Origin: Candidatus Dojkabacteria bacterium
GTDB lineage: Bacteria; Patescibacteriota; Dojkabacteria; SC72
Direction: 5' to 3'
Length of the DNA stretch: 64,000 nucleotides
NCBI GenBank assembly: GCA_050950145.1
Contig: JBMNHB010000001.1
Coordinates: 300,458-364,457, forward strand
Shown: positions 9,232 through 49,550 of the stretch, piece after piece
Position numbering within the stretch: position 1 is the stretch's first letter
Layout of the letters: the number at the start of each line of letters is the position of its first letter
Notes under the pieces: model-generated
The model's input: only the letters and a program-made list of their open reading frames with translations
Databases searched by the model: none
What the model was told of the DNA's origin: nothing
Program-made: the position numbers and the translations under genes

Positions 9232-11382
9232 CTATTGTATTACCTTTATAAATATTCCATTCTGATTTCCGATTTTTAGCTCTTCTCCATATATTTCATT
9301 TTTATCATTCTTTATTGTATATTCAAAAAGACTTTTACTATCTTGCCACTGTCCTATCTGTTTTATCTTATTAAACTCTAGATTTTTTAATATTTCATAT
9401 GATGTATATCCTTTGTTATCAAACAGATAGGAAGGAACTAGATTCCATCCTGACAACTTTGATATATCCAGACTTGCTCCTCTATAGCCAATTAAATTAA
9501 ACTCTGCTCCTTGTAGCGATATAACCATATATGATTTGTTTGAATCTAATTCAAAATCATTGCCATATATTTTTCCATCTTGATACTTTACAACTTGAAT
9601 CCATTCTCCTGATTTGTATTCTCCAACAGCAATAGCTCTTTTATCTGACATATTGATTAAATCGTATGCTGTTTTAGGATGTAGTGTCTGAGTAGTATCT
9701 AATACTTCTACTGGATTAATGAAGCTAACCCCCTTCTTAAGTTGATATTTAGCATTTGTGTTCTTACAATTTGTAATTGGAATATCTTCTCTAAGTACTC
9801 CATTACAATCGGATGGCATTTTTACGGAGAGTTTATTATCTTCAAAACAACATATTTTTTCTGTTTTTATGATTTTTTTATCTACAGTACATGTATATCC
9901 ATGTTCAGCTTCTAATCTAGTTTTGTAATTATTTCCTTCTTTATCGTAGAGACATATACAACCATCATGATCTGCACAATATCTATCTTTATCAGTCACG
10001 ACCATTTCGTCTTTAATACCATCTCCTCCAGAAGGTATTGGTTTATCTGGGTCTGTTGGAGTGGAGTCTGTTGATTCTCCTGAGCATGTTCTATACTTTC
10101 TGTTTTGAGTTTCTTTAGATCTATCACATGAGTTTGCATTAGGTGGAATTCTCCATGGCCATTTGGGTAATTCTTTACCAGTCATCTGATAAAACATCCA
10201 CTCTAAGTATCCAATATACTCAACTCCAGCACCTATTCCATCGTTATCTTCTGTACATACATATCCTTTCCAGTATTTTGTTGCCCATATATGTTCTGGA
10301 CTATATTTTTTCTTAAGTATATCTATTTCTTGGTCTGATTTTTCACCTCTTCTTCTGCAAGCTTCCTCAAACCAATCATCTGCATATGACTCTATAGCAA
10401 CATTTTTAAGAAAATAATTAATTTGTGTAGTAAAATCATTCTTCCATTCTGCTACATGGATTCCAAAGTCTTCAACTACAGGGAATTGTGCATACATGCT
10501 AGCAGCAGATTCGTGCATCCAAACAGTTAATGATATTGCAGGATTAAGTCCAGCGTTTATTGATTTACAATAAGCATCAGCATAACATTCTCTTAAATAG
10601 TCTCCTTTACAATATGAAAAACGTTCTCCTTCTGTAAGTGCTAATGATTGTTCTAAGGTAGGTAGGTATCTAGTATCCTTTATTACAACATTCGTCATAC
10701 AATTAGCTCCTGTAGCTGCATACACATTGTTTTTTAGTGCAGTATTTAATTTTCTCTTTAATTCAAATTTTGGAATATATTGTGCATATTTAATTTCTTT
10801 GTAGGTTTTACCTTTTAAATCTAGTGCCCAGTTTCTGTTTTTGTTAGCAAAAACCATATACTTCTCTCCTTCGGCATCAATTAGAATAAAGTCACCAGGG
10901 TCAGAGCTTCCTGTTTCTATCTGTGGTAGTTTAACTTGTTCATTAATATTTTTAGTTATAAAAGTAAGATTATAATCCCATATGTGTTGTGGAGAATTAA
11001 TTCTAAATGTATATTCTGTATTCGGTTTTAGATTTGATATTGTTGATTTGTATAAGTCTTCTTCATCGGAAATATTTGTGTATATTCTAAAATCATTCTC
11101 ATACTTGTATGGAGCTGTACTTTCTTTTTCTTTGTATGTTAGAACTTCAATATTTTTAGTTTTGGTTTTCCAATATACTTCTGCTTGATTGGTTGAGATA
11201 TTAGCAACTATTATGTCATAGGGTTTTTCTTCTAAAATTTGAAATGTTTTTCTGTTTTGAACTATTAGATAAATATTAGCAATTACTAATAAAAGACCAA
11301 GGAGAAAGAAGTATATAATATTTTTTGATTTTCTAGTTTTTTTCATTTCTCTATGATACCAAATATATATTATCTTGTGCAC
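9232..11382 (-). CDS. Large secreted multidomain protein, tandem paralog of 6585..9194 (variable N-terminal and lysozyme-like domain, near-identical C-terminal domain)
   Basis: N-terminal TM. 'ISLTVWMHESAASMYA...DFGIH' lysozyme/GH73-like signature. C-terminal 240 aa near-identical to 6585..9194 at DNA level. The true start may be the internal Met (MKKTRK...). Confidence 0.6.
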   Translation of the reverse strand: MHKIIYIWYHREMKKTRKSKNIIYFFLLGLLLVIANIYLIVQNRKTFQILEEKPYDIIVANISTNQAEVYWKTKTKNIEVLTYKEKESTAPYKYENDFRIYTNISDEEDLYKSTISNLKPNTEYTFRINSPQHIWDYNLTFITKNINEQVKLPQIETGSSDPGDFILIDAEGEKYMVFANKNRNWALDLKGKTYKEIKYAQYIPKFELKRKLNTALKNNVYAATGANCMTNVVIKDTRYLPTLEQSLALTEGERFSYCKGDYLRECYADAYCKSINAGLNPAISLTVWMHESAASMYAQFPVVEDFGIHVAEWKNDFTTQINYFLKNVAIESYADDWFEEACRRRGEKSDQEIDILKKKYSPEHIWATKYWKGYVCTEDNDGIGAGVEYIGYLEWMFYQMTGKELPKWPWRIPPNANSCDRSKETQNRKYRTCSGESTDSTPTDPDKPIPSGGDGIKDEMVVTDKDRYCADHDGCICLYDKEGNNYKTRLEAEHGYTCTVDKKIIKTEKICCFEDNKLSVKMPSDCNGVLREDIPITNCKNTNAKYQLKKGVSFINPVEVLDTTQTLHPKTAYDLINMSDKRAIAVGEYKSGEWIQVVKYQDGKIYGNDFELDSNKSYMVISLQGAEFNLIGYRGASLDISKLSGWNLVPSYLFDNKGYTSYEILKNLEFNKIKQIGQWQDSKSLFEYTIKNDKNEIYGEELKIGNQNGIFIKVIQ
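9249..9963. repeat. Copy 2 of the ~716-bp near-identical direct repeat
   Basis: See 6601..7316. Offset between copies ~2648 bp. Confidence 0.85.
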
Positions 11383-35475: not shown

Positions 35476-36084
35476 CTATATCCCATTATACACCTCGTGT
35501 TTAACCAATCTAAACTGGTTAAATGGGAAATATACAATCCAAGCTTTTCCCTTAATGTCTTTTTCATCTATAGGGCCAAAAACTCTGGAATCAGAACTAT
35601 GTGGTCTGTTATCTCCACATGCAAAATATCTCCCTTCTGGAACAGTAATCGTTTCGCCCTCTTTAAGATATTCACCACCATTTGTATATACACTACTACT
35701 TAAGTAGTGTGATTCGTCAAGCATGTTTCCATTAATATATAGCTTTCCATCTTTTAACATAACTGTTTCGCCAGGCAGACCGATGATTCGTTTGATGAAG
35801 TCTTGTGTTTCTGAATACTTAAAGATAATGACATCTCCTCTTTGTGGTTTTTTCATTTTGTATAATATTTTGTTTGCCATTAACATTTCCCCATTTTTGT
35901 ATGTTGGATCCATAGATCTTCCTACAACTTCATGAGGTGTCATAATAAAGAGATAAAGGACTACAGAGATAACCAATGCAACTACAACGGTTTCTAAAAA
36001 TGACATGATAAATTTACCAATAGATCCTAGTACAGAGGATATTTTCTCTGTTGGGGTTAATTCTTCTGGTTCTGAATCGTACAT
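35476..36084 (-). CDS. lepB: Signal peptidase I
   Basis: Catalytic 'VVGRSMDPTY' (Ser), 'YFACGDNRPHSSDSR' box E. Confidence 0.85.
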   Translation of the reverse strand: MYDSEPEELTPTEKISSVLGSIGKFIMSFLETVVVALVISVVLYLFIMTPHEVVGRSMDPTYKNGEMLMANKILYKMKKPQRGDVIIFKYSETQDFIKRIIGLPGETVMLKDGKLYINGNMLDESHYLSSSVYTNGGEYLKEGETITVPEGRYFACGDNRPHSSDSRVFGPIDEKDIKGKAWIVYFPFNQFRLVKHEVYNGI

Positions 36085-36154
36085 TTGTTGAGCAGATTAA
36101 ATAATAGTAATTACTAATATACAGTCTATTCAAATGACATTTCTTTGTCAATGA

Positions 36155-36841
36155 TTATCTATCATTTGTAATATCTCCACTCTCTTCTAATGATATTTTT
36201 TCTCCTAAGAAGGTTGGTTTTGGTTTAAAGATGATTTTAAAGAAATCTTTGTTTTGAGCAAATATCTCTCTTGTTAATCTAGCACTATGTCCTCCTAGAA
36301 TATTCTTAGTTGCATTAGCTCCAATTACGTCTAAATCTAGCCTTCTTCCAATATATATTGCTCTGTAAAGATGGTATTCTTGAGAGACAACTATTACTTT
36401 TTCTGCTTCAAATATATATCCTACCCTGTACATACTTTCATATGTTGAAAAACCTGCATGATCCATGAATATATCTTCTGAGGGTACACCTTTTTCAATA
36501 GCGTAATCTTTCATGATATTAACTTCATCGTAATACTCTCTTCCATGGTCACCACTCATTATAATCTTAGGTGCTATACCATTCTCATATAGATATATAC
36601 CTGTATCCAATCTTTCTTTTAGAATTGGGGAAGGGTAGTTACCTCTTACACCACTACCTAGAACTAATATTGCATCATATTCATCTTGATTATCCTGGAT
36701 TGTAATATTTTCTTGGTTATAGACATACTTTTCAGTTGATTTAGTTACATACAAACTTATGCAACCTACTAAAGTAGGAATTAAGAAGAGTATTGCAGCT
36801 AATGAAATGAGAACTTTATTTCTTTTGAAAAAGTCTTTCAT
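36155..36841 (-). CDS. DUF218 (SanA/YdcF/ElyC-like) membrane-anchored protein
   Basis: N-terminal TM. 'YDAILVLGSGV', 'IIMSGDHG' and 'KVIVVSQEYHLYRA' are typical of DUF218. Confidence 0.55.
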   Translation of the reverse strand: MKDFFKRNKVLISLAAILFLIPTLVGCISLYVTKSTEKYVYNQENITIQDNQDEYDAILVLGSGVRGNYPSPILKERLDTGIYLYENGIAPKIIMSGDHGREYYDEVNIMKDYAIEKGVPSEDIFMDHAGFSTYESMYRVGYIFEAEKVIVVSQEYHLYRAIYIGRRLDLDVIGANATKNILGGHSARLTREIFAQNKDFFKIIFKPKPTFLGEKISLEESGDITNDR

Positions 36842-36850
36842 AATATGATA

Positions 36851-36926
36851 TGGTACCGCTACGGGGAATCGAACCCCGGTTTACAGGATGAAAACCTGTT
36901 GTCCTAGACCACTAGACGATAGCGGC
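36851..36926 (-). tRNA. tRNA-Glu (anticodon TTC), CCA encoded
   Basis: Reverse complement GCCGCTATCGTCTAGTGGTCTAGGACAACAGGTTTTCATCCTGTAAACCGGGGTTCGATTCCCCGTAGCGGTACCA. Glu-type D-arm. Loop is TTTTCAT. Confidence 0.85.
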
Positions 36927-36969
36927 ATTACTCTAGAGATTCTACTATAATTAGATCTTTTTGTGAATA

Positions 36970-37209
36970 CTATACCTCTCCCTTTGCAATCATGCTTAGT
37001 ATTTGTTGTTCTTCTGCAAATGTAGCTCTTTTAAAAGCAGCTAGTTCTTTTTCATATACATATCTTCTTTTACATTTGCATTCAACCATTATCCTATTAT
37101 CAGATAGGTTACCTAACTTTTTAGCTTTAGTTAATGGTGCTGTACAACCAACACATAGTTTTCTTTCTAGTAGAACATTTTGAAATGGTCTTGCTATTCT
37201 TTTAAACAT
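36970..37209 (-). CDS. Hypothetical small Cys-rich (zinc-ribbon-like) protein
   Basis: 79-aa ORF with CxxC...CxC. Weak: a 63-aa antisense ORF covers the same span. Confidence 0.3.
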   Translation of the reverse strand: MFKRIARPFQNVLLERKLCVGCTAPLTKAKKLGNLSDNRIMVECKCKRRYVYEKELAAFKRATFAEEQQILSMIAKGEV

Positions 37210-37276
37210 ACTGGACTATTCTATCATATATTTGAACGAATTGGATAACCCATAGCGTTGTCTTCTCTTATATGTG

Positions 37277-37285
37277 TTGGTATAA
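37277..37285 (+). promoter_or_regulatory. Extended -10 promoter element TGGTATAAT (followed by AAGGAGG SD 8 nt before ATG 37353)
   Basis: Perfect TGnTATAAT match at 37277..37285. Canonical SD 'aaggagg' at 37338..37344. Confidence 0.35.
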
Positions 37286-37352
37286 TGTTGTTGTATATTC
37301 ACATTTGTGGATTACAGCTGTTTAAAAACTCATATTAACAAGGAGGTAATCA

Positions 37353-37739
37353 ATGTCTGAAGAATATAAAGAGAAGATAGTTGCAGAACTTAAGGAAGAA
37401 TTAAAACAACATCCAGTTAAGTTTGGTGAGTTTCGTTTGAAGTTAACTTTATCCTCACTTCGTTCTTATTTCTTTTTCCCACTTGAAACAGATTTTAATA
37501 TTAAGGAGATACGAAGATGTGGAAAAAACTGGGCTGTATTACTCCAAAGAAATTTAGAGAAAGGGCTAGAGTTTACCGATGCCTTATATGAATGTTGTGG
37601 TCTTGCTTGTGGTACGGAGTCTAGAAAACTCCTAGCTTATGCCTCTGTATTTCTGTACTTGTGTTGGAAGGGGCCGGTGTCTTCTTGGAAACTTGCAACT
37701 TTAACAATGGAACACTTTGGGGAAGGCTATCTAGATTGA
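37353..37739 (+). CDS. Hypothetical protein, compositionally atypical (Cys/Trp-rich, GC-richer 3' two-thirds)
   Basis: 128-codon ORF, long for this AT-rich background. Strong SD and extended -10 upstream. No recognisable domain. Confidence 0.4.
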   Translation: MSEEYKEKIVAELKEELKQHPVKFGEFRLKLTLSSLRSYFFFPLETDFNIKEIRRCGKNWAVLLQRNLEKGLEFTDALYECCGLACGTESRKLLAYASVFLYLCWKGPVSSWKLATLTMEHFGEGYLD

Positions 37740-37895
37740 AATATGAGTTTTTAATATAGGTACCATACAAGGTGAGATATGTATACAGCAATGTATATTT
37801 TAAATATCTCGTAAAACCTCAATATGGTGCTTTTTTCTTTTATCAGTGATATAATCTGATAGTTATATTATATTATTTGAATTAATAATTATAAT

Positions 37896-38651
37896 ATGGA
37901 ACCAACAGATGATTTAGTTTCTGAATCCACACCTCAGGAACAAGGATGCACACCTCTAAACAATAGAGTCATGGGAAATTTTGATCCTAGTTGTTCTTAT
38001 CTTTCGATATTAAAAAATAATAGAACAAATTATGATCCACCACCTGAAAATGGTGGGTTTTATACACTATTTCGACTAACAGAAAGTCAAAAACTTTTCA
38101 TGGCTAAATTAATGGGTATGCCAACGCTTGAAAAGAAACAGAAACCAGGAGAAACAGAGATTCCACTACTTAGCGATGCTATTTATTATGGATTAGATGA
38201 AACAAGTAAAACCTTAATTGAATATGAAAATGATAATCAAAAATTTTTACTTCGTTTAACTCCAGAAATAAATGAAACTTTGTTTTTTAAAGTGCAAAGA
38301 GATCATTTAGTAAATCTAATATCTGCAGGTTTAAGAATAGAGGAAAGGAATGGTTTAGATGAAGAGATAATGCCAACGAAATTATTACTTTCTGGTTATG
38401 AAGATGAGAAGACAATTGCAGAGAAAACTGAGAATTTGCATAATAATCAAAACGGAATTAGGGAAGGAATTTTAGAACTAATATTATTGACAAAAGACAC
38501 TAATTCTCCCTCTCAATTATGCTTAGGTTCTTGGATGACTATTACTTTACCAAAGAATCTTGATTTGGAGAAAAGAGCAGTTGTTAATTCCAGATTTATT
38601 GCGAAACTAGTTGTTAATGGTTTTAGAGTAAAAGAAATTTCAGATATCTAG
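37896..38651 (+). CDS. Hypothetical protein
   Basis: 251-aa ORF with protein-like composition and no recognisable motif. Ends 10 nt before tRNA-Leu. Confidence 0.45.
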   Translation: MEPTDDLVSESTPQEQGCTPLNNRVMGNFDPSCSYLSILKNNRTNYDPPPENGGFYTLFRLTESQKLFMAKLMGMPTLEKKQKPGETEIPLLSDAIYYGLDETSKTLIEYENDNQKFLLRLTPEINETLFFKVQRDHLVNLISAGLRIEERNGLDEEIMPTKLLLSGYEDEKTIAEKTENLHNNQNGIREGILELILLTKDTNSPSQLCLGSWMTITLPKNLDLEKRAVVNSRFIAKLVVNGFRVKEISDI

Positions 38652-38661
38652 TATCTGAAAA

Positions 38662-38745
38662 TGCCGAGGAGAGGACTCGAACCTCCAAGGGTTTTACCCC
38701 ATATGCTCCTAAGGCATATGTGTCTGCCAGTTTCACCACCTCGGC
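38662..38745 (-). tRNA. tRNA-Leu (anticodon TAG), type II with long variable arm, no encoded CCA
   Basis: Reverse complement GCCGAGGTGGTGAAACTGGCAGACACATATGCCTTAGGAGCATATGGGGTAAAACCCTTGGAGGTTCGAGTCCTCTCCTCGGCA. Loop is CTTAGGA. Confidence 0.85.
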
Positions 38746-38978
38746 TTAGTAGGCTATATTTTACTAAAAATTCGAACTTTTTAACAGTATTAGTGTAAAT
38801 ATAGTATGGAAATAATAGTTTGAAGAGAAAACCCAAATTTACTGTTCTCCCCCAATCACCTTACCATATACTTTAACATGTCCATTCTCTGTATATTCAG
38901 CAGTCTTTAAAACTTCTTCTTGTGTTAAACATTTACCAGGGATATCTTCTCTAACTTCTTCTAATTTAATATGTTTTT

Positions 38979-40517
38979 TCATTTTTTTAATTCTTTCTCT
39001 AAAGTAATCTTTACCTCTGCTGGATTAGCTGTACCATGTGTTAATTGCATAACCTTACCAACTAAAAAGCCAATACTAGCCTCCTTACCACCTCTGTAAT
39101 CATTAGCAGCCTGTGGATTCTCATCAATAACTTGCTTTGCAATATCTTCAAGACTCCCAACAGACTCCTTAGCACTCTTTAGTTTCTCAATCTCTTTGGA
39201 TATGTCAATATCTTTCTCTATACTCTCATTAAGTAATTCCTCTGCCTTGTTCTTTGTAAATATACCTTCCCTAAAAGCAATGATTAACAAAGCTAAGTCT
39301 TCTCCTTTAACACCTGTCTCTATAATATCCTTACCTTGCTTGTTTGCAATTGCATAGAGTGGACCCATAATCCAGTTTGAAGCCTCTGTAGCTGCATCTT
39401 TTTCATCCATATTCTCAGAGAGTTTCTTTTGAAGTTTCTCAAAATACTCAGCACTCTCTTTTGATGAAGAGATTACATCTGCAGCATACTCTGTAAGTTT
39501 CCAATCCTTCACATATCTCTTTATCTTCTCAGTTGGCAACTCAACTAACTCTTTCTTGATTCTTTCAATATCTTCCTTAGATACATCAATTATTGGAATA
39601 TCTGGATCTGGAGCATATCCATAGTCCTCAGCCTTTTCTTTACTTCTTTGGAACTCTGTAACACCCCTAGATGCATTCCAACCTCTTGTTTGCTGTATTA
39701 ACTCTTTTCCTTCCTCTAACTCTTCTATCATCCTCTTTACTTCATACTCTATAGCTTTTTCTACTGCTGTTATGGAACCAATATTCTTTACTTCAGTCTT
39801 AGGATTAAGTTTATAATCACCAATTGGTAATACCTTTCCATCTTTGTATTCCCATTTACCTTTTTCCTGAATTGAGATATTTGGTTCACATCTCATCTGT
39901 CCTTTCTCCATATCTGCATCGGAGACATTTAGATATCTAGCAATCTGTCTAATCTTTGTAGCATAGTCTTTAGCATCCTTTGCACTTCTAATATTTGGTT
40001 TTGTAACAATCTCAATCAATGGAACACTTGATTTATTAAAATCAAGAAGGGTATATTCCTTACCTGTAGAAGCTTCTACATGGTGTGTTGACTTACCAAC
40101 ATCTTCTTCTGGATGTATTCTTTCTATCTCTACCTTTGCACCACTTGGTACCTCTACATATCCGTTTGAGCATAATGGATTCTCTCCTTGTGTAATCTGA
40201 TATCCTTTAGGTAGGTCAGGGTAGGAGTAATGCTTTCTATCAAATTGTATCTCAGAAGCAATCTTACAATTTGTTCCTAAACCCATGAGGATACAGAGCT
40301 CTAGTGCTCTTTTATTTGGTTGGGGAGTACCTCCAAGTCCTAAACACATCGGACATACTTGCGTATTTGGTTCTTTCTGAAAGTACTGAGCTGGACATGA
40401 ACAAAACATCTTAGATTTTGTTTTAGTTTGTACATGTATCTCTAAACCAATTATCACATCGTATTTGTTTGTTGTATTTTTACTCATGGGGAATATATTA
40501 TCACTTTCTTTATTCAA
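38979..40517 (-). CDS. gatB: Asp-tRNA(Asn)/Glu-tRNA(Gln) amidotransferase subunit B
   Basis: 'YDVIIGLEIHVQ', 'KMFCSC' and the C-terminal YqeY-like domain. Full length. Confidence 0.9.
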   Translation of the reverse strand: MNKESDNIFPMSKNTTNKYDVIIGLEIHVQTKTKSKMFCSCPAQYFQKEPNTQVCPMCLGLGGTPQPNKRALELCILMGLGTNCKIASEIQFDRKHYSYPDLPKGYQITQGENPLCSNGYVEVPSGAKVEIERIHPEEDVGKSTHHVEASTGKEYTLLDFNKSSVPLIEIVTKPNIRSAKDAKDYATKIRQIARYLNVSDADMEKGQMRCEPNISIQEKGKWEYKDGKVLPIGDYKLNPKTEVKNIGSITAVEKAIEYEVKRMIEELEEGKELIQQTRGWNASRGVTEFQRSKEKAEDYGYAPDPDIPIIDVSKEDIERIKKELVELPTEKIKRYVKDWKLTEYAADVISSSKESAEYFEKLQKKLSENMDEKDAATEASNWIMGPLYAIANKQGKDIIETGVKGEDLALLIIAFREGIFTKNKAEELLNESIEKDIDISKEIEKLKSAKESVGSLEDIAKQVIDENPQAANDYRGGKEASIGFLVGKVMQLTHGTANPAEVKITLEKELKK

Positions 40518-41592
40518 TATCCATAACTAACTCATCATCCTTCTCAAATTTTTCTTTGCATAATACATAGAATGTACCTCTACCTCTACCTTTTGATTTA
40601 ATATATCCTTTTTCAACCATATCTTGCAAATCTCTATATGATGTCATGAAAGATACACCCATCATCTTTGTCAATTCCTTCCTATTTATCTTCTGATTAA
40701 GTGTAAGGTAGTCTATAATCTGAATCTGCCTAGGATTCAATTCCCATTCAAGAGTACCTTGTTTTTTAACTTTTTTAAGGTATGTATCAGCATATTCTTT
40801 TGATACTTCAATAGCAGTAAGTGAAACTGTGTAGAGAAATGCTTCTATGAAAGGAGTTAGGTCCATCTTAGCTTTTGTCATCTTGTGTGCAGAGAGTAGA
40901 TCTTCAGCGACATATTCTAATGATTTGAAATACGGAATTATATTCTCCGGATTATACCCATATTTTTTAGATAGTATTTCTACAACAAGTATTGCAGTGA
41001 TTTGATTACCTACTGAAAATGGTGCTTTATCTAAAAATTCATAGAGTAGTATCCCAATTTTAATTAATTTATGATTACTATCTGTTCCATTCTGTATCCA
41101 ATCAAAAAGTTCATTAAAGTGAGAAGTCATATCCATATTTGGATAGAAATCTCTGGCTTTGTACCATGTATCATATATTTCATTTGGTTTTTCACTAAAT
41201 CCTCTAATTTTTCCAATATCCCAATCATCTACAATACCTCTCATTACTAATCTATTAATATGTACAGCTAATTCCATAGAGGGTTTGAGAGAGTTTGCAT
41301 TGTTGTAGGATTTTACAAAGTCTTTGGCACTTCTGAAGTTTGTAAATATTTTTAGTTTCTTTTTCTCAGAAGGCATTTCTTGTCCTCTTTGTATTGTTAG
41401 AGCTTTGTTGTAACCAATTGGATATGCTATTAAATCACCCATCTTCTGTATATCTTCTGCAGAAAATCGTTCTTTTAATGGTGTTTTATATTTCTCTGGT
41501 AGAGGATTATATTTAATCTCATTCATTGATAGCTCATACTTAATAATGTAGTTGAGCATAAGATTTGTAAGCGTATATTTAGGTGTTTTCAT
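40510..41592 (-). CDS. Fic/DOC family protein with degenerate active-site motif and C-terminal winged-helix
   Basis: Fic-fold helix 'YEFLDKAPFSVGNQITAILVVEILSKKYGY' aligns to HPFx(D/E)GNGR but lacks His and Arg. C-terminal 'LTLNQKINRKELTKMMGVSFMTSYRDLQDMVEKGYI' wHTH. Overlaps gatB by 8 nt. Confidence 0.5.
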   Translation of the reverse strand: MKTPKYTLTNLMLNYIIKYELSMNEIKYNPLPEKYKTPLKERFSAEDIQKMGDLIAYPIGYNKALTIQRGQEMPSEKKKLKIFTNFRSAKDFVKSYNNANSLKPSMELAVHINRLVMRGIVDDWDIGKIRGFSEKPNEIYDTWYKARDFYPNMDMTSHFNELFDWIQNGTDSNHKLIKIGILLYEFLDKAPFSVGNQITAILVVEILSKKYGYNPENIIPYFKSLEYVAEDLLSAHKMTKAKMDLTPFIEAFLYTVSLTAIEVSKEYADTYLKKVKKQGTLEWELNPRQIQIIDYLTLNQKINRKELTKMMGVSFMTSYRDLQDMVEKGYIKSKGRGRGTFYVLCKEKFEKDDELVMDIE

Positions 41593-49347: not shown

Positions 49348-49550
49348 AGGTCTGGCCTAGGTCTGCCCCATGTTAATCTATATTTAATCATCTATATTCC
49401 TTTCTTATATAAGTCTTTTTTGATAAAAATCTTTTTATTTTGTAAGAATTTTGGTCTAGGGAGACATAGGATATTGTAATTACTTAGTAGTAGGAGACCT
49501 TTTGGGTGGATTAAAAAGTTATGAATCAGGGGCAGACCTAGGCCAGGCCT
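49348..49550. mobile_element. MITE-like GC-rich element with ~22-bp terminal inverted repeats (copy 1)
   Basis: Left end aggtctggcctaggtctgccccatgttaa. Right end aaaagttatgaatcaggggcagacctaggccaggcct, which is its reverse complement at 19/20. AT-rich ~140-bp interior. Second copy at 61932..62137. Confidence 0.6.

Follow-up and report, generated by a model that had tools for sequence, protein, structure and literature searches.

The closest described systems with which the present locus can be compared are phage morons, integron cassettes and CALINs, tRNA-associated islets, and MITEs or other small IS-derived elements. Phage morons, as described by Juhala, Hendrix et al., are reportedly transcription units of their own, placed between the genes of a prophage, and elements of the IS200/IS605 type have subterminal hairpins. 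CPR bacteria (Patescibacteria) have tiny genomes that are regarded as streamlined, and approximately half of their genes are unknown. A literature search on hypervariable loci in Dojkabacteria found nothing relevant.

Analysis of a 64-kb stretch of DNA (the window) from a Candidatus Dojkabacteria (CPR) MAG led us to conclude, with a probability of roughly 60%, that the reading frame orf128 forms an orphan, protein-coding cassette specific to its strain, located in a conserved expression slot of a hypervariable array. In one Candidatus Dojkabacteria subclade, this array separates the core gene orf79 from the 3' end of tRNA-Leu, having been inserted there. The core locus appears to be a hot spot at which unrelated small ORFs are exchanged between strains, and the conservation of its expression signals exceeds that of the core genes.

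A variable site next to tRNA-Leu

The original prediction described an islet flanked by tRNA-Glu and tRNA-Leu and containing three unassignable ORFs. Both tRNAs were called by ARAGORN as well as by Rfam (Table 1), and none of the three ORFs (orf79, orf128 and orf251) had a significant match, including any recombinase domain, in Pfam, PHROGs or NCBIfam. One of them, orf79, is a core gene that lies outside the variable cargo, with 65-99% amino acid identity across 24 genome loci of Dojkabacteria/Patescibacteria. The neighbors of the islet are also core genes, namely gatB, genes for a signal peptidase and a DUF218 protein, parA/parB, and tRNAs. In the window and in the related loci L005-L012, the genes called in the approximately 3-4 kb to each side of the islet included no recombinase or transposase.

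Table 1. Features of the islet and its boundaries, in window coordinates
Feature	Position	Strand	Remarks
tRNA-Glu(UUC)	36851-36926	-	Left islet boundary; ARAGORN and Rfam tRNA (64.8 bits)
orf79	36970-37209	-	Small protein, conserved, with a zinc-ribbon-like CxxC...CxC pattern
Promoter of the orf128 unit (predicted)	37258-37286	+	-35-like TTGTCT, 17-nt spacer, extended -10 TGGTATAAT at 37278-37286
5' leader stem-loop GTATATTCACATTTGTGGATTAC	37292-37316	+	At predicted mRNA 5' end; hairpin in MFE fold
Inverted-repeat leader arm TTAAAAACTCATATT	37322-37336	+	Perfect 15-bp inverted repeat; cassette homology stops here
Shine-Dalgarno AAGGAGG	37340-37346	+	6 nt before the orf128 ATG
orf128	37353-37739	+	128-aa orphan; 5 Cys and 3 Trp in the last 73 residues
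Inverted-repeat trailer arm AATATGAGTTTTTAA	37740-37754	+	Begins 1 nt after the orf128 stop codon; cassette homology resumes
Hairpin and T-run (predicted intrinsic terminator, cassette-end element)	37759-37841	+	Basal stem GGUACCA/UGGUGCU
Second extended -10 TGATATAAT	37847-37855	+	Probable orf251 promoter
orf251	37896-38651	+	Chimeric cargo protein
tRNA-Leu(UAG)	38662-38745	-	Right islet boundary; ARAGORN and Rfam

Comparison with related loci indicated that the site itself is variable. In the close relative L005, tRNA-Glu(UUC) is found in an identical position, the flanks are 91-96% identical (96% at the nucleotide level for orf79), and orf128 is absent, 134 unrelated nucleotides taking the place of 917 nt of the window (37245-38161) that include orf128. 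In distant relatives the site is empty, with tRNA-Leu only about 10-20 nt from the start of orf79. The order GatB, orf47, tRNA-Leu, cargo and orf79 is kept in those related loci that extend as far as gatB, and the cargo, which is faced by the 3' end of tRNA-Leu(UAG), differs by lineage in the sizes of its encoded proteins (95+165, 123+187+166, 107+164, 191+184, 109+178+291, 181 and 128+251 aa); some of these arrays could hold assembly errors, because MAGs and metagenome contigs are the source of the related loci. The absence of orf128 from L005 and the empty site in distant relatives favor the suggestion of the original prediction that a small protein gene had been acquired, in the form of a strain-specific gene acquired or replaced within a variable islet.

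Conserved flanks around unrelated reading frames

The body of the variable slot is occupied exactly by orf128, and the sequences on both sides of this body are found in other Dojkabacteria around other ORFs. The promoter-leader, of approximately 66 nt, is common to the window, L014, L023, L037 and L039. The terminator hairpin, of approximately 75 nt, is present in 14 copies from 10 sources (the window, with one copy, and nine other loci), located 3' of unrelated ORFs. The folding energies of the 14 hairpins range from -21 to -31 kcal/mol (z -5 to -9), and the hairpin of the window (37759-37830, followed by a T-run at 37831-37841) folds at -25.3 kcal/mol (z -5.6). The base of the hairpins is invariant, and their interiors diverge yet stay paired. 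RNAalifold analysis of the 14 copies recovered no more than a single inner stem besides the invariant basal one, as the hairpin interiors are misaligned by indels, and the structural conservation is therefore shown by folding each hairpin separately. Between the window and L037, identity is 88% in the leader and 83.5-87.7% in the hairpins, versus 77% in core-gene DNA.

The equivalent slot in other Dojkabacteria contains either a 95-aa protein or a lipoprotein of the phage VG64 family. In L037, a 134-aa lipoprotein that belongs to Pfam Phage_VG64 (E 2.6e-50) and phrog_478 lies between the matching leader and hairpin. Neighboring cargo contains Tad4 (anti-Thoeris) domains scoring 40.9, 35.1 and 26.3 bits, the gathering score being 25, and Tad4-domain proteins of this kind come from L037 and L023. 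Neither the hairpin pattern nor the leader pattern occurred in viral contigs.

The calls of a promoter and a terminator for the orf128 unit are consensus-level predictions, and the predicted promoter is the top match to the promoter consensus within the 4 kb between 36000 and 40000. Its extended -10, which lies 1 nt from the coordinate originally given, is kept with its surroundings in L014, L023, L037 and L039 (twice in the last), and the leader stem-loop that follows is nearly invariant among six leader copies located upstream of unrelated ORFs. The Shine-Dalgarno sequence announced for orf128 is indeed canonical, with optimal spacing, and precedes the first ATG. The 64-kb window contains 11 perfect TGNTATAAT boxes and five sites at which AAGGAGG is followed by a start codon, and orf128 is the sole site that pairs an extended -10 with AAGGAGG, in agreement with the outstanding expression signals that had been attributed to it. 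The second Shine-Dalgarno and ATG reported inside orf128 were found as AAGGAG at 37503-37508 and ATG at 37517, but the frame that they open runs for just 24 codons. Downstream, the probable orf251 promoter is also kept in L014, L015 and L017, 3' of their hairpins.

The perfect inverted repeat that brackets orf128 raises the alternative that the 433-bp segment at 37322-37754 is a small mobile element, either of a MITE- or PATE-like kind or in the form of a cassette mobilized in trans by a recombinase, which delivered the ORF. The two arms enclose the Shine-Dalgarno sequence and the ORF exactly, and perfect inverted repeats of at least 15 bp within 1 kb are rare, two being present in the 64-kb window versus 0.17 expected. 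The breakpoints of homology to other cassettes also fall inside both arms, with the leader homology to L037 stopping at 37330 and the homology to L014 beginning at 37738 (nhmmer), and the combination of a small 5' hairpin and a long 3' hairpin might be likened to the subterminal hairpins known from IS200/IS605-type elements. However, the repeat has no further copy at up to one mismatch in the 64-kb window; no direct repeat beside the arms indicates a target-site duplication; and no transposase or recombinase was called within ~3-4 kb of the islet, here or in relatives. The segment is absent from viral contigs and was found in three metagenome contigs only, all representing this locus. Furthermore, each arm has 9-10 nt in common with the skeleton that is conserved around other ORFs, and the arms are therefore not specific to the orf128 insert. 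We consider delivery by such an element improbable.

A (A/G)AGTTTT(T)AA motif is found 5' of the hairpin in every leader-bearing cassette, and the leader and trailer arms show one compensatory difference, C-G versus T-A, between the window and the other cassettes. Since just this one compensatory pair was observed, the complementarity of leader and trailer could come from the common ancestry of the skeleton rather than from selection for pairing.

Coding status and origin of orf128

The original prediction offered, as one possibility, that orf128 is fortuitous and lies over a structured non-coding RNA transcribed from the strong promoter. The predicted promoter and terminator, the higher GC content of the segment, and the folding of the full transcript, which is somewhat better than that of shuffled sequences (z -2.0), are compatible with such an RNA, but the evidence for a coding sequence led us to reject it. 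An open frame of at least 128 codons has P <= 5e-5 in shuffled sequences, and the canonical Shine-Dalgarno sequence precedes it. The body of orf128 alone gave z +0.96, and the excess structure therefore comes from the leader hairpin, the inverted repeat and the terminator. In the Rfam scan that had been proposed as a check, made at the gathering thresholds and also at E <= 10, only the two tRNAs reached the gathering score within 36800-38800, and the best other scores within 37280-37800 were 11.9-15.1 bits as against gathering scores of 39.5-100. The same kind of flanks also bracket clear protein genes elsewhere.

The composition of orf128 is atypical, genuinely but modestly so. The GC content of the last 73 codons is 0.42 and exceeds the 99th percentile (0.416) for segments of equal size in the long genes of the 64-kb stretch, and their GC3, at 0.34, lies above the 95th percentile but below the 99th, while the GC content of the whole ORF is 0.372 versus 0.356 for gatB. 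In the codon-usage comparison, orf128 scored 0.06, the lowest value among the genes of the window, and its C-terminal part scored 0.015, below the 1st percentile, as compared with 0.295 +/- 0.075 (minimum 0.14) for 43 long ORFs. The C-terminal part is enriched in Cys (6.8% versus 1.0% background, p = 7e-4), Trp (4.1% versus 0.9%, p = 0.03) and Leu (17.8% versus 8.9%, p = 0.01). GC content and residue enrichment bear out the earlier description of a GC-richer C-terminus rich in Cys, Trp and Leu.

Searches for relatives of orf128 showed it to be an orphan. The homology search suggested for the 128-aa product found nothing but itself among 5.8 billion proteins, and when 1.84 billion cluster representatives were scanned in full with HMMER, the single match, P0007 (E 5.8e-6), was an uninformative one, a 384-aa internally repetitive protein that aligned with a short helical stretch. 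No match was found in Pfam, NCBIfam, PADLOC or the PDB sequences, and searches of IMG/VR, GenBank phages and PHROGs gave no match that would point to a phage origin. The orf128 sequence was recovered in contigs from four samples (the three Logan runs SRR31066037, SRR31061295 and SRR13001966 and the JGI metagenome 3300060679), and every copy was identical. The single-sequence AF2 model had a pLDDT of 45.5 and was unusable. A pseudogene hidden under orf128 was also considered and discarded; tblastn of the cargo proteins of related arrays against all frames of 37300-37900 gave nothing better than E 0.3, and the other five frames are filled with stops, which argues against a hidden pseudogene.

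The five Cys residues, including a CCGLACG motif, and the strain-specific distribution of orf128 could suggest a bacteriocin-like peptide or a small thiol-redox or metal-binding protein, as was proposed at the outset. These features are opposed by an acidic, charged N-terminus with neither a signal peptide nor a double-glycine leader, by the absence of a transmembrane segment (maximum KD19 1.09) and of a CxxC thioredoxin-type motif in orf128, and by the lack of any match in Pfam, NCBIfam or PADLOC, the SoxR match (E 0.16) being far below the cutoff. No transporter, export, immunity or modification genes are linked to orf128. Such a function therefore appears very doubtful for orf128, and the proposal of a bacteriocin or redox protein was not borne out.

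The neighboring orf251 differs from orf128 in having recognizable relatives, and here the proposed homology search was productive, revealing a small family found only in Dojkabacteria. The N-terminal ~88 aa of orf251 have their counterpart in L037 in a separate ORF, to whose C-terminus they are related, with 56% identity over residues 14-72. Residues ~88-250 form a two-repeat domain with 48-53% identity to proteins of 179-187 aa, and the family, defined here (orf251 and P0003-P0013), comprises 13 proteins among 5.8 billion. Its repeat HMM, which describes a beta-strand-P-x-L...G-hydrophobic repeat, matched orf251 with E 6.6e-27, and in the AF2 model each 10-residue block of residues ~91-250 had a mean pLDDT of 76-95; there was no match among solved structures. 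Members of the family share locus, orientation and cassette skeleton with orf128, but orf128 is not a member. A resemblance of its residues 38-76 (YFFFPLETDF...NLEKGLEF) to the family repeat was dismissed at an hhalign probability of 0.4%, and the repeat-level HMM, run against all ORFs of the window and all six frames, gave no match for orf128.

A different possibility is that orf128 has no selected function and is either non-functional or very young, representing DNA that was captured between two conserved signals or a de novo proto-gene. Its frame would in that case be open by chance, perhaps transcribed and even translated. The orphan status of orf128, the worst codon adaptation in the window, a GC content in the top 1%, and the low confidence of the structure prediction are all compatible with this possibility. 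In addition, orf251 is a demonstrable chimera produced by illegitimate recombination, and novel reading frames therefore do arise at this locus. Against it stand the improbability that a frame stays open over 128 codons where the DNA is AT-rich and the two remaining frames have 10 stops each; the canonical Shine-Dalgarno sequence ideally spaced before the first ATG; the periodicity GC1 > GC2 > GC3, which orf128 keeps; and the bona fide protein families that fill the slots of relatives. A reduced genome of ~750 kb is also expected to purge useless DNA. On balance, an origin of this kind is unlikely, though it deserves more weight than delivery by a mobile element. The practical message for orf128 itself is modest, and for annotation it is probably an expressed orphan protein and not a non-coding RNA.

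Proposed mechanism and comparison with known systems

The following mechanism, which we infer from the anatomy of the slot, may account for a strain-specific orphan cassette at this site. The first conserved part of the slot is the promoter-leader of ~66 nt, containing the extended -10 TGGTATAAT, the 5'-terminal stem-loop and the motif TTAAAAACT, and the second part is the trailer motif AGTTTTTAA followed by the ~75-nt hairpin and T-run. The orf128 unit would be transcribed alone, as a monocistronic mRNA of ~0.55 kb running from about 37293 to about 37840, and the 5' stem-loop, the 3' hairpin and a 9-15-nt pairing of leader and trailer may close and stabilize this mRNA. From the canonical Shine-Dalgarno sequence, a Cys/Trp-rich protein, soluble and cytoplasmic, would then be translated efficiently. 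As different cassettes and different strains have the non-coding flanks in common, recombination within these flanks could swap or replace the ORF body, a step suggested by the pattern of conservation, and such recombination would explain why the ORF body has no relatives and is atypical in composition. From the contents of the sister slots, it may be guessed that orf128 plays an accessory role in conflict with phages or hosts.

A more speculative possibility, which we regard as rather unlikely as a whole, is that these loci represent an undescribed cassette system of Dojkabacteria in which no integrase was detected. The promoter-leader and the hairpin terminator, joined by the complementary boundary motifs of 9-15 nt, TTAAAAACT and AGTTTTTAA, would serve both as an mRNA-stabilizing chassis and as recombination handles by which orphan or phage-derived ORFs are swapped beside tRNA-Leu, forming a functional analogue of integron cassettes or morons that serves an ultra-small episymbiont in phage or host conflict. 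The ORFs swapped in such a system would include the VG64-like lipoprotein, the Tad4-domain proteins and orf128. If the pattern of small ORFs exchanged within conserved expression signals is general, an accessory pool of conflict genes in these uncultivated episymbionts could be found by means of the leader and hairpin rather than by means of proteins, and strong portable promoter, leader and terminator parts would become available for the phylum, for which, to our knowledge, no genetic tools exist.

Among known systems, the MITEs and small IS-derived elements resemble the orf128 segment in their perfect terminal inverted repeat, of 15 bp here, but differ from it in the features weighed above, namely an extra copy and a target-site duplication. 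The resemblance to phage morons is broader. Like a moron, orf128 is a single ORF with its own predicted sigma-70-type promoter and its own predicted intrinsic terminator, its composition differs from that of its neighbors, it is present or absent between near-identical genomes, and its product is an orphan while sister slots encode phage-family proteins (Phage_VG64 and Tad4). Unlike morons, it lies outside any recognizable prophage among core genes, several units stand in tandem with a promoter-leader and a terminator hairpin that are each homologous from unit to unit, and no match was found for orf128, the leader or the hairpin in IMG/VR, or for orf128 in GenBank phages. As the orf128 unit is not within a phage or prophage, it can be called moron-like only.

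Integron cassettes and CALINs share with the array the co-oriented tandem arrangement of small, mostly orphan ORFs, an imperfect palindrome of ~60-100 nt after each ORF, and contents that vary between close strains. However, the bases of the 14 hairpins read AGCACCA/TGGTGCT and are followed by a T-run, with no GTTRRRY/RYYYAAC core visible at the hairpin ends when the alignment was inspected by eye; no IntI was found among the genes called within ~3-4 kb around the islet in the window and L005-L012; and the Dojkabacteria cassettes, in contrast to integron cassettes, carry their own extended -10 promoters. With tRNA-associated islets, the locus has in common a variable cargo that adjoins the 3' end of a tRNA, a site that is empty in distant relatives, and lineages that differ in their cargo. 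It differs from them in lacking an integrase, in the islet and among the neighboring called genes, and att repeats of the tRNA 3' end, no word of at least 10 nt being common to either tRNA and the islet, in the small size of its cargo, which comprises only 0.5-2.2 kb of small ORFs, and in having a second variable site across the same tRNA, on its other side.

Features and expression signals of the tRNA-Glu/tRNA-Leu islet

The window derives from a metagenome-assembled genome (MAG) of Candidatus Dojkabacteria (CPR/Patescibacteria). The two tRNAs of the original prediction were recovered by both ARAGORN and Rfam, and the three ORFs between them, orf79, orf128 and orf251, were indeed unassignable, with no significant match in Pfam, PHROGs, NCBIfam or PADLOC. 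The expression signals claimed for orf128 were also confirmed, give or take one base. Its predicted promoter is the best promoter-like site within 36000-40000, and among the 11 perfect TGNTATAAT boxes and five AAGGAGG sites with a start codon in the 64-kb window, the two signals are combined only at orf128. The predicted terminator of orf128 was missed by a simple terminator scan because its loop and stem are beyond the limits of the scan.

Identical DNA was assembled from four samples (three Logan runs and one JGI metagenome), and the arrangement around orf128 is reproducible. In the Logan contigs from three independent runs (L002-L004, window 37000-38691), all short-read unitigs stop 24-30 nt inside tRNA-Leu (38685 or 38691), which is consistent with assembly-graph branching from co-existing strains with different neighbours.

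Positions of features in and around the islet (window coordinates unless contig L005 is named)
Feature	Position	Strand	Remark
tRNA-Glu(UUC)	36851-36926	-	ARAGORN and Rfam
orf79	36970-37209	-	between the tRNAs
Predicted orf128 promoter: TTGTCT, 17-nt spacer, TGGTATAAT	37278-37286 (TGGTATAAT)	+	consensus match
Inverted repeat, arm 1: TTAAAAACTCATATT	37322-37336		
Shine-Dalgarno AAGGAGG	37340-37346	+	6 nt upstream of orf128 ATG
orf128	37353-37739	+	between the tRNAs
Inverted repeat, arm 2: AATATGAGTTTTTAA	37740-37754		
Predicted intrinsic terminator: long hairpin, then T-run	37759-37830 (hairpin)	+	3' of orf128
orf251	37896-38651	+	between the tRNAs
tRNA-Leu(UAG)	38662-38745	-	ARAGORN and Rfam
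orf47 (47-aa ORF)	38839-38982	-	4-nt overlap with gatB start
Second perfect inverted repeat, 19 bp, GC-rich: GGCCTAGGTCTGCCCC... / ...GGGGCAGACCTAGGCC	49352-49370 and 49529-49547		flanks a 158-nt AT-rich intergenic spacer
HD-domain gene	L005 4727-5281		between DUF218 and tRNA-Glu; cleanly absent at window 36842-36850
249-aa gene	L005 6494-7243		between tRNA-Leu and orf47; cleanly absent at window 38803-38844
Radical-SAM gene	L005 8905-9744		after gatB; cleanly absent at window 40512-40524

Coding character and orphan status of orf128

In a codon log-odds model trained on 43 long ORFs of the window, orf128 scored 0.06 and its last 73 codons 0.015 (1st percentile of 73-codon windows, 0.036), as compared with 0.295 ± 0.075 and a minimum of 0.14 for genes. 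The GC content was 0.372 for orf128 and 0.42 for the last 73 codons (99th percentile of 73-codon windows, 0.416), and the respective GC3 values were 0.297 and 0.34, the latter between the 95th (0.315) and 99th (0.370) percentiles. Cysteine makes up 6.8% of the C-terminal part against a background of 1.0% (p = 7e-4), and tryptophan and leucine are likewise enriched there. The composition of orf128 is therefore atypical, as originally proposed, but moderately so; GC1 > GC2 > GC3 is retained, as in real genes. Neither a signal peptide nor a transmembrane segment was found in the product. A second Shine-Dalgarno sequence and ATG reported inside orf128 are present (37503-37519), but their frame is open for 24 codons only.

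The original prediction had left open whether the ORF is fortuitous over a structured non-coding RNA. In an Rfam scan of 36800-38800, only the two tRNAs reached the gathering score, everything else being far below threshold. Over its full length the predicted transcript has a slightly better fold than shuffles (z -2.0), whereas that of the orf128 body alone is no better (z +0.96), so that the excess structure lies in the flanking elements. When the variable body was shuffled 40,000 times with its composition preserved, ORFs of at least 128 codons occurred at frequencies of 0 (Markov set, 20,000) and 5e-5 (mononucleotide set, 20,000), and each of the other two forward frames has 10 stops. We conclude from these results, which favour coding, that the reading frame has been kept open; a non-coding RNA is very unlikely here, and that branch of the prediction did not hold.

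The product is identical to the NCBI entry 'hypothetical protein ACOX0R_01805' of a 748,838-bp contig, which is orf128 itself. Only this self-match was obtained among 5.8 billion proteins, and filter-free HMMER against 1.84 billion cluster representatives added one uninformative repeat protein. Searches of PDB sequences, GenBank phages and IMG/VR gave no match, nor did tblastn against any of the related loci. Single-sequence AlphaFold gave a pLDDT of 45.5. The presence in orf128 of one repeat of the two-repeat family represented by orf251 was rejected by profile tests. Both the poor codon adaptation and the absence of relatives would also fit a young or functionless filler, which is the main rival reading and is considered unlikely. 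The alternative branch of the prediction, a horizontally acquired small protein, was broadly right in that orf128 is an orphan, strain-specific ORF in a variable site.

Conserved modules and inverted repeats around orf128

Sensitive blastn and iterative nhmmer revealed two conserved modules that flank orf128, itself not conserved. The first module is a promoter-leader of ~66 nt (...TTGGTATAATG-N6-GTATATTCACATTTGTGGATTAC-N5-TTTAAAAACT) that includes a 5'-terminal stem-loop and occurs in six copies with a near-identical conserved core (window, L014, L023, L037 and two in L039). The second is a hairpin of ~75 nt; its base, AGCACCA/TGGTGCT, is invariant, and a T-run comes after it. Its 14 copies come from 10 sources (the window and nine loci, with two copies each in L022 and L036 and three in L037); the folding energies of the individual copies range from -21 to -31 kcal/mol (z -5 to -9), and a variable ORF lies directly 5' of every one (14/14). 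The hairpin interiors belong to at least three unrelated sequence classes, all still paired, which points to structural conservation with compensation. On inspection, the hairpin ends showed no GTTRRRY/RYYYAAC core of the kind that marks attC sites. Leader and hairpin each occur once in the 64-kb window; in a pattern scan the hairpin turned up on only three metagenome contigs (JGI/ENA), each time at this locus, and on none of viral origin. Between the window and L037, identity is higher for the leader (88%) and the hairpins (83.5-87.7%) than for adjacent core genes (77%, nucleotide).

A perfect 15-bp inverted repeat brackets the Shine-Dalgarno sequence and orf128 exactly. Two perfect inverted repeats of at least 15 bp within 1 kb occur in the window, as compared with 0.17 expected; for the other, of 19 bp, an invertible promoter segment and a binding site for a protein are possible explanations. 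In each orf128 arm, 9-10 nt are part of the conserved skeleton: (A/G)AGTTTT(T)AA precedes the hairpin in all four leader-bearing cassettes and is complementary to the leader TTAAAAACT(C/T), with one compensatory difference (C-G in the window, T-A in the others). By this pairing, the stretch of mRNA from the 5' stem-loop to the 3' hairpin would be closed. Homology to other cassettes breaks off inside the arms, which may be exchange points of cassette bodies. A MITE is disfavoured, because no further copy of the repeat is present in the 64-kb window and no target-site duplication is visible. No att-like tRNA fragments were found. The called genes neighbouring the islet include no recombinase, either in the window or in the relatives, which are all metagenome-derived and were covered for up to 10 kb of flanking DNA; a recombinase might act in trans.

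Variable cargo in related loci

A 181-aa homologue (P0003) is encoded on syntenic contigs (L005-L012), whose flanks share 91-96% DNA identity with the window. A 917-nt span (37245-38161), which takes in orf128 with its predicted promoter and terminator, a second predicted promoter and the opening 88 codons of orf251, has no counterpart in L005, where 134 unrelated nt are found instead, and the remainder of orf251 shares only 48% protein identity with the L005 gene. Three further L005 genes are missing from the window (see table), and several small indel hot spots are therefore clustered in an 8-kb core region.

Scanning GTDB species genomes with orf79 yielded 24 loci, and the order gatB-orf47-tRNA-Leu-[cargo]-orf79 is kept in those reaching gatB. 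In more distant genomes ~10-20 nt separate tRNA-Leu from the orf79 start codon, the empty-site state. In one subclade the cargo is always co-oriented and always different: 95 + 165 aa in L014, 123 + 187 + 166 in L015/L017, 107 + 164 in L020, 191 + 184 in L022, 109 + 178 + 291 in L036, 181 in L005 and 128 + 251 in the window. Where this site is empty in distant relatives (L026, L029, L033-L035), different cargo (348-aa secreted, 150-160-aa and 198-225-aa proteins) lies between tRNA-Leu and orf47, and thus both flanks of tRNA-Leu are variable sites. The small CxxC...CxC protein orf79, 65-99% conserved across Dojkabacteria, always adjoins tRNA-Leu or the cargo site and is read divergently from the first cassette; no family could be assigned, the sole hint being a sub-threshold Mrr_cat match (E 0.078). 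Because it is conserved (47-96% identity) in related loci reaching its position, the unannotated orf47 is probably a genuine small gene that precedes gatB and is co-transcribed with it.

The C-terminal ~165 residues of orf251 share 47-53% identity with 179-187-aa proteins; more distant relatives of 159-192 aa complete a small family, which amounts to 13 clusters among 5.8 billion proteins. All members that could be placed were on Dojkabacteria-type contigs, and the family is apparently confined to Dojkabacteria. It consists of two copies of one motif (hydrophobic strand, P-x-L, acidic stretch, L..G-hydrophobic). The AF2 model from the family alignment is confident over residues ~88-250 (every 10-residue block from ~91 to 250 has a mean pLDDT of 76-95) and has no convincing neighbour among solved structures in the PDB. 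Residues 14-72 share 56% identity with the tail of a separate, partial 187-aa ORF in L037 (11708-11881). orf251 is therefore a chimera in which part of one cargo gene has been fused to a two-repeat gene, and it directly demonstrates that new reading frames arise here by illegitimate recombination.

The array of L037, a 110-kb contig, reads in window orientation: partial 187-aa ORF, 122-aa single-repeat ORF, 194-aa ORF, hairpin, leader, 134-aa ORF, hairpin, promoter, 178-aa ORF, hairpin, 170-aa two-repeat ORF, tRNA-Leu. Its 134-aa ORF (reverse strand, 10052-10456), bracketed by the leader and hairpin that also enclose orf128, encodes a lipoprotein belonging to Pfam Phage_VG64 (E 2.6e-50) and phrog_478, and 95-aa single-repeat proteins lie behind the same leader in L014 and L023. 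Three cargo proteins carry a Tad4 domain (PF25186, 'Type I Thoeris inhibitor'; gathering score 25): the L037 194-aa ORF (~10709-11293; 40.9 bits), the L023 308-aa ORF (35.1 bits) and the L036 291-aa ORF (26.3 bits). Tad4 has been described as a phage anti-Thoeris protein (bioRxiv 10.1101/2025.06.06.658234). These phage-type accessory and anti-defence domains of sister arrays stand in a CPR chromosome without a surrounding prophage.

Because sister arrays hold these VG64-like and Tad4-domain proteins, our best guess, made with low confidence, is that orf128 may serve as an accessory gene in conflict with phage or host. Its unit is best described as a single slot in a hypervariable array of cassettes, with no integrase among the neighbouring called genes, on the 3' side of tRNA-Leu in one Dojkabacteria subclade, and orf128 itself as an orphan protein gene that is specific to the strain and lies in a self-contained transcription unit resembling the morons of phages, which carry their own promoter and terminator.
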